Source: a virus
Lineage: Duplodnaviria > Heunggongvirae > Uroviricota > Caudoviricetes
DNA: 28,791 bases
IMG/VR virus record: IMGVR_UViG_2534682161_000017
Location: 1-28,791 of that record
Reading direction: 5' to 3' (one strand)
Positions 12,001 through 15,000 of this stretch are shown here, piece by piece. Position 1 is the first letter of the stretch. Every line of letters begins with the position of its first letter. The position numbers are program-made.

Positions 12001-15000
12001 TCGTCAGCCAGATATGTAATGACTACTGCCATGTTGACCTCCGATGATTGACTTTGGCGGTGACGCGCCGGGTGCTTATCTTCCGGTTGCCGTCGTGCAG
12101 CTGCACTTCACGTCACCCCAAAGCCAACTACTCTTTGGTTCCCGCATTTCGGCGGGACAATCCCATCAATGTTAAAGAGCCTGCCAATCTGTTCCGTTTG
12201 GCTACCAGCTTCCTGCTGATGGCTTAAAGATAACTTAGGTTATAGGTGTGGTCAATAACCTAATTTATATTTTGTGGTAAATAAGTTATAAGTGATGGAT
12301 AACAAAGGTATTTTATTTTTGTAAATGTTGCTGATTGATTGGTGTTTGAGGGCTTGCGTGCTGGGTGAAGGTGTTACCTTTGGCTTGATGCTTGTCTATG
12401 ATGAGGATGGTTGATTGGATGGTGAACGGCAGGGAAAGAAAAACCCGGCGCTGAGGCCGGGTGTTTTTAGTCCTTTCTGTTGCTTAGCATTTCGTCGATT
12501 TCTAAGTCAATACGATATTGATCTATTGATTTTCTCTCGTTTGGGGTTGGTATTTTATACTGTTCAATTAGATCTGTTGTGTATTTTATTTCATCTAATG
12601 TGATTTTTATATCAGAGAGAATCTCTTTTATATCAATTAGATGCTCTTCTTCTTTTGCGCGATTAGAGCTATGTTCAATCATTTGAGATAGCTTTTTGCT
12701 AATGCTTAGCAAAACAAAAAGAATGATGACCAAAACAACAACAAAAACTATCAGAAATTCCATTATCCCTCCGCACTTCCGTAAGTCTTCTTCTGATTAT
12801 CGGTTACCAACTATGAGACGACCAGAATACTCTGCCAATAATCCTTACGGTTTCATGAAATTCATCTCTATCCATTACTTCATCCGGGTACTCTTCGCGA
12901 TTTATTGATCTGATTATCACCGATGTAGGGGTGGCGATTAATGTTTTTACTCGTAACAAATCAGACTGGCAAATAGCGTAGGTTTTACCATCTCTGATTG
13001 TGGTATCTTGCGTGTTAACACCAACAACATCGCCATCGTGAAGCGTAGGTTCCATGCTTTGCCCTACAACCCTAACTAGCTTGGCTGATCTTTCAGATAC
13101 TCCCATCTTTTTCAGATAGTGCTTTCTGAAAACCAAAGAGAACTCCGATGATTCCTCTAGCTCGCAGCTACCGCTTCCAGCTGAAAGCGAAACGTTAAGA
13201 AGAGGCAACGCAACAAACTCGTCATCGTTTCTTTTAATGTCTTCCCATACCACAGCTTTTAAAGATGACTCACGGACATTGGATGGTTCTTCATGTGCAC
13301 CATCCCTCATTTCACCAATACCAGAACTAAGCCATTCAGGGCGCACTTTTAAAGCATTGGCTAATTCAACCATCTTGCGAGATCCGTTTGTTTTACCGGA
13401 CGACATCTTCTGTATGGCTGGCTGAGATATTCCAACCATGTCTGCAAGCTGTGATTGTGATACCCCAGCTAAGCTCATGGCTGCATTTAGTCTTTCTGCG
13501 AATGTTTTCATACCCACAAATCTATAACTACGGTTATCCAAAGTAAAATAACAAAGGTTATTGCTATTTTTTATAACTTGAGTTATCTTTGGTTATAATC
13601 AATGACCACAAGAGGTATGCTCATGAATTTAGTAATTCAACGAGCCTTGAAAATTGTCGGTAGCCAAAAGCGCCTTGCCGACAAGTGTGGTGTAACGCAG
13701 CCAGCAGTACACAAATGGCTGAAAGGCGGATTGGTCTCTCCAGAGAAAGTTACCGCCATCGTTAACGCCACTGGAGGGCAGATCAAGGCTTACGAAATTC
13801 GCCCCGATTTGCCACACCTGTTTCCAAAACCGAATCAGGCAGCATAAGTAACACCGCTCTTTAACAGTCATGGTCCTCATTCCCGCCGAAATGCGGGAAT
13901 ACAACGCGCATAAGTTGATGCGCATAACTTCTTATTTGTTAAGGAAATACTTACATATGGTTCGTGCAAACAAACGCAACGAGGCTCTAAGAATCGAGAG
14001 TGCGTTGCTTAACAAAATCGCAATGCTTGGAACTGAGAAGACAGCGGAAGCTGTGGGAGTTGATAAGTCGCAGATCAGCAGGTGGAAGAGGGATTGGATT
14101 CCAAAGTTCTCAATGCTGCTTGCTGTTCTTGAATGGGGCGTCGTTGACGACGACATGGCTCGATTGGCACGACAAGTTGCTTCGATTCTCACCAATAAAA
14201 AACGCCCGGCGGCAACCGAGCGTTCTGATCAAATACAAATGGAATTTTAACAACATCCAACGAGGTAATTATATGCGAAACAAAGGCTTTAATCCACCTG
14301 ATACACACAAAGAAGCTAAGCGTTTGCGCTTCCTTCGTTCCATTGATGAAAGAACTCAAATCTCTTTTGTGAAAGTTGCCAGAACTGAGCTTCTGAAGGC
14401 TGAGGCGAGGGCGTTGCTCCCGTCTCTACCAAAAGAGGAGGGATATACGTTCATTCCAAACGCATTTCTGGAAAAGCTTCTCAAAGAAGACATATCCGTA
14501 AGTCAGTTTAACGATGTTCTTAAGGTCTTTCGTCAAGGCAGGTAGTTATGAGCAATACAGCAAAAATCTACGATTTCAGCGCCGCACACGAGCGCAGGAG
14601 CAACAGGATGGAGAACCAGAAAACTGGTTACATTCCGTTGTACCGGAGCATTCTGAAACAGTCATGGGCGAAAGATGTTTATCTTCGCACCCTGTGGGAA
14701 AACCTTCTCCTGAATGCCGCCAGAAAGCCATACAAAGCGAATTTCAAAGGTCATGAATGGCATCTGCAACCCGGTCAACTGGTTGTGACAGCAGCTGATT
14801 TAGGTCTTCAGTTATGCGACAGGCATGGCAAGCCGGCAAGCCGTGATCAGGTTGAGCGGATGCTTCAGGTTTTTGTGAAAGAGGGGATGATCACCATTGA
14901 TGGAGAGAAGCAAAAAGGTCGTGTGATCACCATCACAAATTACCATGAATACGCTCAAAAAATGGACAATTCACCCGCACATGAAGCCGCACAAACAACC

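Follow-up and report, generated by a model that had tools for sequence, protein, structure and literature searches.

A Repressor-linked Prophage Gene in the rex Position Encodes a Predicted Single-pass Membrane Protein and Is a Candidate Phage Exclusion Factor

RESULTS

orf98 Lies between cI and an Intrinsic Terminator

The DNA analyzed here, referred to as the window, is the whole 28,791-nucleotide stretch of IMG/VR virus record IMGVR_UViG_2534682161_000017, an Escherichia coli prophage. Directly behind its cI-type repressor gene, and on the same strand, lies a 98-codon open reading frame (ORF), here named orf98, which begins with ATG and occupies 12467..12763 on the minus strand, the end coordinate 12467 including the stop codon. 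An earlier note, made from the sequence alone, had described the product of this ORF as a membrane protein in the position at which phage lambda carries its rex genes and had suggested a part in phage exclusion or abortive infection. Inspection of the locus confirmed the placement of the gene: the cI stop codon (12804) is separated from orf98 by 40 nucleotides, and a pattern scan of this gap revealed no terminator. The Shine-Dalgarno sequence that had been ascribed to the gene is also present and is read as GGAGGG at 12767..12772 (minus strand), 3 nucleotides upstream of the ATG. GGAG- or GAGG-like ribosome sites are likewise found in homologs, within their gaps of 12-44 nucleotides.

Abutting the stop codon of orf98 is an intrinsic terminator (12433..12462, minus strand), which comprises a stem-loop at 12443-12462 followed by a U-run at 12442-12433. 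The hairpin has a 7-bp stem containing six G-C pairs and received a terminator score on both strands in the pattern scan, as expected of the bidirectional terminator reported previously. On the orf98 strand its folding energy is -13.7 kcal/mol (z = -2.2), and it is followed by UUUUUCUUU. A CCCGGC...GCCGGG stem and a T5 run are kept behind the gene in the closer homologs, where the loop is variable. An Rfam scan of the window revealed no known RNA element in or near orf98.

A promoter-like sequence, TTGGCA-17-CATAGT, was observed shortly before orf98, in the 3'-terminal part of cI (12838..12810, minus strand), and recalls the internal pLIT promoter that serves rexB in lambda. By itself this site carries no weight, however, given that the scan returned 4 sites against 4.0 expected in shuffled sequence.

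The Gene Is Enclosed by the Operators of the Immunity Region

The repressor gene (12804..13511, minus strand) encodes a protein with HTH_3 (Pfam E = 8.8e-7) and Peptidase_S24 (E = 1.6e-17) domains and belongs to phrog_4. Its length is 235-245 residues depending on the choice of start codon. Initiation at the ATG at 13511 yields the 235-residue protein annotated by RefSeq in an identical prophage, whereas the TTG start in the ORF list (13541) adds an extension (13512..13541) that overlaps an operator copy at 13524-13537. The ATG at 13511 is therefore the more plausible start.

Six copies of the operator-like palindrome ATAAC-N4-GTTAT are present in the window, against 0.63 expected, and five of them form two clusters. 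The first, OR (13524..13586), contains three copies (13524-13537, 13548-13561, and 13573-13586) at a spacing of 24-25 bp and is adjoined by a pR-like promoter (13570-13599, plus strand). The second, OL (12227..12268), contains copies at 12230-12243 and 12255-12268 and is adjoined by a pL-like promoter (TTGACC-17-TATCTT, 12255-12227, minus strand). Divergent from cI is an ORF for a cro-like regulator (13602..13847, plus strand), labeled "transcriptional regulator" by RefSeq in the identical prophage. At its far end, the cargo slot between cI and N is bounded by the first gene of the leftward early operon, which encodes an N-like antiterminator (11727..12032, minus strand; phrog_271, E = 3e-36; Pfam N_peptide, E = 1e-3). 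The order of features is accordingly N, OL/pL, terminator, orf98, cI, OR, and cro. Given that the OL and OR clusters flank orf98, the gene lies inside the immunity region and in the slot where lambda has rexB-rexA, as had been proposed.

Orf98 Is a Predicted Signal Anchor Protein with a Conserved C-terminal Hairpin

The Orf98 polypeptide contains a single hydrophobic helix at residues 3-21, and the remainder is acidic and helical. An AlphaFold2 model (predicted local distance difference test score of 82) consists of two helices, residues 2-68 and 74-97, with a break at I-P-T-P. Sequence and model together thus bear out the description of a 98-residue protein with one N-terminal transmembrane (TM) helix and a charged helical tail. 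Alignment of 19 family members resolved the following parts: the TM helix (3-21), a variable linker (22-43), a heptad coiled coil (42-69), a K-[IL]-P turn (70-75), and a final helix (76-97). The sequence of the TM helix is poorly conserved and has no polar face, and the linker varies in both length and sequence. By contrast with the TM helix, the C-terminal end is conserved as IKYxTDxIEKYKLPxxxERxxIDQxxxDxEI; heptad positions 42, 45, 49, 52, 56, 59, 66, and 69 are hydrophobic in at least 89% of the members, and Tyr-69, Pro-72, Asp-81, and Glu-88 are invariant. Length, architecture, and motif are kept down to 22% identity.

All 19 members lack Lys and Arg ahead of the TM helix and have 1-4 such residues within the 15 that follow it. 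By the positive-inside rule, this distribution predicts a signal anchor in the N-out/C-in orientation, with the conserved part of the protein in the cytoplasm. On these sequence features, the TM helix would serve as an anchor, the heptads would promote self-association, and the C-terminal hairpin would provide the working surface.

When 1.84 billion cluster representatives were searched with a profile, 17 proteins were recovered at E ≤ 0.001, 16 of which are 94-126 residues in length. The remaining protein, P0026 (428 residues, E = 1.2e-4), matched in six short stretches and was excluded from the family alignment. A word-indexed search yielded 21 clusters. Orf98 matches PHROG 18389 along its whole length (E = 1.1e-61; residues 1-98 against profile positions 1-98 of 98) and belongs to it; this entry is listed as of unknown function and so adds nothing on mechanism. 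The proteins constitute a small, uncharacterized family of repressor-linked prophage membrane proteins.

Database and Fold Searches Reveal No Characterized Relative

The profile searches and structure prediction that the earlier note had called for returned no characterized homolog and upheld its view that no described family is represented. Searches of Orf98 against Pfam, NCBIfam, and PADLOC gave no match at threshold, leaving PHROG 18389 as the sole match, and a Pfam scan of all 19 members gave sub-threshold matches only. A profile search of Protein Data Bank sequences recovered designed coiled coils, MotB (E = 0.21), and the coiled coil of MCU, a likeness at the level of architecture only, and fold searches recovered only generic coiled coils. 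No paper was found in the literature that characterizes the protein or names its RefSeq entry, WP_000394870.

A number of specific identities were considered and rejected. Sub-threshold matches to DUF5385, DUF948, MscL, and ZorB were driven by the TM helix or the coiled coil and were dismissed as compositional. In the case of a Zorya ZorB/MotB stator, the PADLOC ZorB match (E = 0.009, 13.5 bits) covers residues 4-56 only, the protein ends at residue 98 without a C-terminal domain, and no gene for a ZorA/MotA partner is present in the slot. For YebO/gp15 (PF13974), Orf98 gave no match at E ≤ 1, nor did any of the 19 members at E ≤ 0.05. SieB (PF14163) likewise gave no Orf98 match at E ≤ 1; a true SieB gene was observed elsewhere in one of the homologous loci (L007). 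No Rex family was found at E ≤ 1 in the Pfam scan, and the interval between cI and the terminator holds a lone 98-residue ORF with one TM helix. Comparison with P22 SieA gave an hhalign probability of 0.2%, and Orf98 has one TM helix against the three predicted in SieA. Finally, the TM-helix-Pro-hinge-helix build led to consideration of an Rz-like mini-spanin, but the charges predict the opposite topology, the gene is located in the lysogenic operon, and the prophage has a separate lysis cassette at about 20977-21887.

orf98 Is a Real Gene under Purifying Selection

The ratio of non-synonymous to synonymous substitution rates (dN/dS) between orf98 homologs from other loci is 0.10-0.24, as determined from pairs with unsaturated synonymous sites only. 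The 33 E. coli-type copies represent 15 DNA alleles; each copy retains an intact frame of 98 codons, and the 11 synonymous and 11 non-synonymous changes segregating among them correspond to a polymorphism ratio (pN/pS) of 0.25. orf98 is a real gene under purifying selection. A chance ORF or decaying remnant without function might be suspected from its short length, its AT-richness, an annotation that is never more than hypothetical, and its presence in a single deposited phage genome of 50,697. This is effectively excluded by the selection analysis and by the 33 intact copies, and it is also opposed by conservation of length, architecture, and motif to 22% identity, a strong ribosome site, and a dedicated terminator.

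The gene was found in 99 of 5,426 complete E. coli genomes (about 2%), where it is always chromosomal and always annotated as hypothetical. The strains that carry it come from cattle, pigs, chickens, and humans and include O26:H11 Shiga-toxin strains. The one deposited phage genome is that of an Stx1a-converting phage, in which the gene is unannotated. Two family-motif scans of a species-representative genome collection confirmed no locus. Hosts seen so far are Escherichia and Citrobacter, together with metagenomic contigs.

The Family Is Linked to Prophage Repressors

In IMG/VR, the gene is located directly behind an S24 repressor in all 34 recovered loci, with gaps of 1-40 nucleotides. The same arrangement was observed in 11 lambda-like loci retrieved by exact protein look-up (L002-L007, L012-L014, L015-L018) and in L061. 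Overall, linkage to the repressor extends to about 45 lambda-like loci with gaps of 1-44 nucleotides, including members only 35-48% identical to Orf98, and in one locus the gap between repressor and gene is a single nucleotide. The linked S24 repressors are of nine types. Between the window and other loci the cI proteins are 24-31% identical, whereas the orf98 homologs there are 63-77% identical. Within E. coli, orf98 travels with one cI allele (98-100% identity).

Linkage is not confined to S24 repressors. In two P22-like IMG/VR contigs, L059 (2637..3269, plus strand) and L060 (2125..2736, plus strand), a family member is located directly downstream of a Mnt-type repressor of the ribbon-helix-helix fold (Pfam Arc, E = 2.6e-18; Repressor_Mnt, E = 9e-9). 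It has the tailspike gene on one side and, on the other, an 892-residue SLT-domain gene that we read as the gene for an ejection protein. The equivalent immI segment of P22 contains mnt, orf59a, and the superinfection-exclusion gene sieA.

The contents of the slot also vary behind related repressors. In phage SH2026Stx1 (L021, 1401..2465, minus strand), the cI of which is 93% identical to that of the window, orf98 is replaced by other cargo, namely a 112-residue DUF3024 protein that matches the PADLOC candidate PDC-S43 (E = 9e-41) and a 176-residue protein of unknown function. In PA28 (L022), the cI gene is 79% identical to that of the window and the slot is empty. Taken together, these two phages indicate that orf98 is dispensable for this immunity system. 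The cI-N region is a recognized mosaic hotspot for accessory loci (PMC7067206, PMC8585504), and variable presence behind related cI genes, a conserved terminator, atypical G+C content, and dispensability for the immunity circuit identify orf98 as a genuine accessory ("moron"-type) gene of the cI-N hotspot in this P22/lambda-like E. coli prophage.

The G+C content of orf98 is 30.6%, compared with 43% for cI and 48% for the window, and the protein is rich in Ile, Lys, Asp, Glu, Asn, and Tyr. The AT-richness noted earlier relative to the neighboring genes is therefore real, but its value as a sign of separate acquisition is weakened: all homologs examined have a G+C content of 30-39% beside cI genes of 43-50%, even at saturated synonymous divergence. 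Low G+C content is therefore an old, maintained trait of the gene and is no sign of recent import. Mobility of the cassette is better shown by the exchange of cargo behind near-identical cI genes and by the occurrence of one cassette with unrelated cI genes.

Remote members (22-34% identity) occur outside prophage immunity regions. One of these, P0031, from a deltaproteobacterial metagenome bin (L009, 2396..3076, plus strand; also L010 and L011), has no repressor nearby and is found ∼180 nucleotides upstream of a DUF2971 gene that matches the PADLOC candidate PDC-S31 (E = 6.7e-27), with a PIN/MazE pair and an AEP primase-helicase also in the vicinity. This setting looks like a mobile or defense island. 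Another remote member is carried on a Rep3-type plasmid-like contig, and a further one is located among unannotated genes in a Pelagicoccus contig.

In Citrobacter-type and related loci, an extra gene of 67-75 codons is present between the orf98 homolog and N and is convergent with the homolog (L002, 6324..6530; L004, 6324..6548; L006, 4733..4960; L007, 2402..2611; all on the minus strand). The product in L007 is a DUF2767 protein. This gene gave no PADLOC match, and neither the window nor most of the loci contain it.

The Source Prophage and Its Neighboring Genes

The window prophage has head genes of P22 type and early regions of lambda type, and its integration site adjoins ybhC. Its first 25 kb are 95% covered at 100% identity by a prophage of strain MFDS1019527. 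In the copy of the prophage carried by the nearest complete genome (L001; NZ_CP169309.1), the terminase, portal, and endolysin genes are annotated as frameshifted, and an IS3 insertion is present; the frameshifts could reflect either real decay or assembly errors. Both cI and orf98 are intact there, and a 411-base query comprising orf98, the terminator, and the last 7 bases of cI is 100% identical.

Two further ORFs of the leftward side were observed. The first (10136..11158, minus strand) encodes a 340-residue protein very rich in Glu, Lys, Ala, and Arg; it is intact in the window, its counterpart carries the RefSeq label "cell envelope biogenesis protein TolA," and the copy in the otherwise identical MFDS1019527 prophage is split by an IS3 element. 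The second (11248..11718, minus strand; 156 residues, G+C content ∼36%) directly follows N in the leftward operon and matches phrog_1636, of unknown function (E = 1.6e-110), with no significant match in Pfam, PADLOC, or NCBIfam. A 471-nucleotide gene is also found at this position in HK97 (Gp45), PA28, and an O26:H11 prophage, so that this ORF is a second conserved unknown beside the immunity region.

DISCUSSION

The architecture of Orf98 finds its nearest apparent analog in gp15 of phage HK97, a small prophage-expressed inner-membrane superinfection-exclusion protein that blocks genome entry and leaves the outer-membrane receptor untouched; its gene is a moron in the tail operon and is described with its own promoter and terminator (PMC3594210). 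Both proteins start with Met-Glu and proceed straight into one TM helix; basic residues come next, and a charged helix forms the C terminus. They are nonetheless not members of one family: gp15 matches YebO at E = 1.2e-8, whereas Orf98 does not, and comparison of the Orf98 family with gp15 gave an hhalign probability of 1.3%. They also differ in size and setting, gp15 having 62 residues and a gene in the tail operon and Orf98 having 98 residues and a gene in the repressor operon. The conserved part is N-terminal in gp15 (PMC3594210) and is the C-terminal motif in Orf98. Production of gp15 from the prophage is established, whereas that of Orf98 in the lysogen is suggested by the layout of the operon.

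By position, the comparison is with the genes of three other prophages. In lambda, cI and rexAB share a transcript that starts at pRM; the RexA sensor is cytoplasmic and has about 280 residues, and RexB is a channel protein with four TM helices. The Rex system thus requires two genes, whereas orf98 is a single gene for a protein with one TM helix and has no partner in the window. The two nevertheless occupy the same slot, bounded by cI on one side and OL/pL on the other, end at a terminator ahead of pL, and include a membrane protein (PMC8585504); in lysogenic growth, the lambda prophage is known to express rexAB (PMC7067206). P22 SieA has a positional counterpart in the family members of the two P22-like contigs, which occupy the immI segment behind the Mnt-type repressor, but SieA has 162-164 residues and three predicted TM helices (PMC10883804), compared with 98 residues and one TM helix for Orf98. 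In addition, sieA of P22 is annotated with its own promoter, whereas orf98 shares the operon of the repressor.

BstA, which acts in abortive infection, is a large soluble protein that binds DNA and has a self-immunity DNA element. Orf98, by contrast, is a small membrane protein, and no relationship between the two was detected in any search. The genes are alike in their arrangement, however, given that bstA of the Salmonella prophage BTP1 is located directly downstream of the repressor, a position that is remarkably well conserved, and has its own Rho-independent terminator (PMC7067206, PMC8585504). Transcription of bstA from the cI promoter was observed in all 17 conditions tested, and it is a proven abortive-infection gene (PMC7067206, PMC8585504).

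The likeliest role for Orf98, put forward tentatively, is that of an inner-membrane factor that is expressed in the lysogen and excludes or aborts infection by other phages. This reading is favored by a slot known for cargo and defense genes, with rexAB in lambda, bstA in BTP1, and the PDC-S43 candidate in a sibling phage, and also by the linkage to both S24 and Mnt-type repressors, the evidence of selection, the operon layout, and the gp15-like architecture. Context and architecture, by analogy with the systems described above, are the grounds for an anti-phage function, for which orf98 is a reasonable candidate.

As judged from the gene layout, the transcript made from cI in the lysogen would extend into orf98 as its second gene, starting at the maintenance promoter beside OR and ending at the hairpin after orf98, before OL/pL is reached. 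The product would insert in the inner membrane in the N-out/C-in orientation, with ∼75 residues exposed to the cytoplasm. This cytoplasmic part would start with a variable spacer, continue as a heptad coiled coil through which the protein probably self-associates, and finish with the strongly conserved helix-KLP-helix end, and the hairpin formed by the latter may bind a conserved partner at the inner face of the membrane. Orf98 could hinder completion of the DNA-entry conduit, in the manner of superinfection exclusion by HK97 gp15 or P22 SieA; alternatively, it may be a minimal abortive-infection factor that acts at the membrane in a Rex-like manner. In either case, the lysogen, and hence the prophage, would be protected from other phages.

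Several observations weigh against an anti-phage role. A functional end that is predicted to be cytoplasmic would not contact the periplasmic parts of a conduit. That the C-terminal motif is conserved across phyla and the TM helix is not points to a conserved host partner in preference to an arms race with phages, and this pattern is the opposite of that seen on comparison of gp15 with YebO (PMC3594210). No kinship of sequence or fold was found to any of the defense proteins tested. Position, moreover, is weak evidence, since the slot also carries genes of unknown or non-defense role. A more far-reaching version of the proposal is improbable: Orf98 might be a one-gene defense or control device of ∼100 residues that is hard-wired to maintenance repressors of both the cI/S24 and the Mnt/ribbon-helix-helix fold, in which a membrane-anchored coiled coil presents the hairpin, conserved across phyla, to a universal host factor at the inner membrane, acting either as a minimal Rex-like abortive-infection switch or as a new membrane input to the lysis-lysogeny decision. 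Such a mechanism would have no counterpart among the exclusion and abortive-infection proteins so far described.

Other roles have to be weighed against exclusion or abortion of infecting phages. It is possible, although rather unlikely, that Orf98 regulates the life cycle of its own phage as a membrane-tethered partner of the repressor module, tuning the maintenance of lysogeny or induction instead of acting on competing phages, for example by binding a conserved host factor such as FtsH/HflKC or RecA, by coupling the state of the envelope to induction, or by restraining the lysis proteins of the phage itself. In favor of this reading, the family is tightly and anciently coupled to maintenance repressors whose folds, cI/S24 and Mnt/ribbon-helix-helix, are unrelated; gaps as short as 1 nucleotide, which suggest translational coupling, and the single cI allele that accompanies the gene in E. 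coli point the same way, and conservation of the cytoplasmic motif across distant hosts is what a conserved target in the host would produce. However, SH2026Stx1 and PA28, in which cI is near-identical or related, do without orf98, and some remote members have no repressor nearby and are found instead beside a candidate defense gene, a toxin-antitoxin pair, and a primase-helicase, or on a plasmid-like contig of Rep3 type. Furthermore, bstA displays the same conserved synteny and yet is a defense gene (PMC8585504).

More doubtful is a lysogenic-conversion factor, in which case Orf98 would act, as bacterial small membrane regulators do, on a transporter, a sensor kinase, or a stress pathway of the host and would confer a gain in fitness unrelated to phages. 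Non-defense roles are common among morons (PMC3594210, PMC7067206), such regulators typically consist of a single TM helix and a short cytoplasmic helix, conservation of the motif hints at a host partner that is itself conserved, and the gene is present in 99 of the 5,426 complete E. coli genomes, from varied hosts. Set against this, Orf98 resembles no known family of regulators, the genes that set a precedent at the two slots (rexAB, bstA, and sieA) are anti-phage (PMC8585504), and a sibling phage carries a candidate defense gene at the same place. A toxic membrane peptide, holin-like or similar to a type I toxin, that serves as an addiction or lysis module and kills cells upon loss of repression or of the prophage is very improbable. 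Its attractions are a very hydrophobic N-terminal helix encoded by a small AT-rich gene, the small convergent gene just downstream in some loci, and a weak likeness to TM-plus-helix channel parts (MscL, MotB, and ZorB). The protein would be made constitutively with the repressor, though, which renders an unregulated toxin implausible; in addition, the TM helix is poorly conserved and has no polar face, the convergent gene is missing from the window and most loci, and the channel-like matches are all far below threshold.

The cI-N stretch is among the few places where position alone predicts expression in every lysogenic cell. Both rexAB and bstA are found in this slot, to which the Orf98 family adds a compact and tractable single-gene occupant with four invariant residues that offer a mutational handle. 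If Orf98 does block phages, it would represent a new small exclusion or abortive-infection protein, with a bearing on phage therapy and on the spread of Shiga-toxin phages. If it does not, the strict association with two kinds of maintenance repressor would suggest that lysogeny is controlled at a further, unrecognized level.

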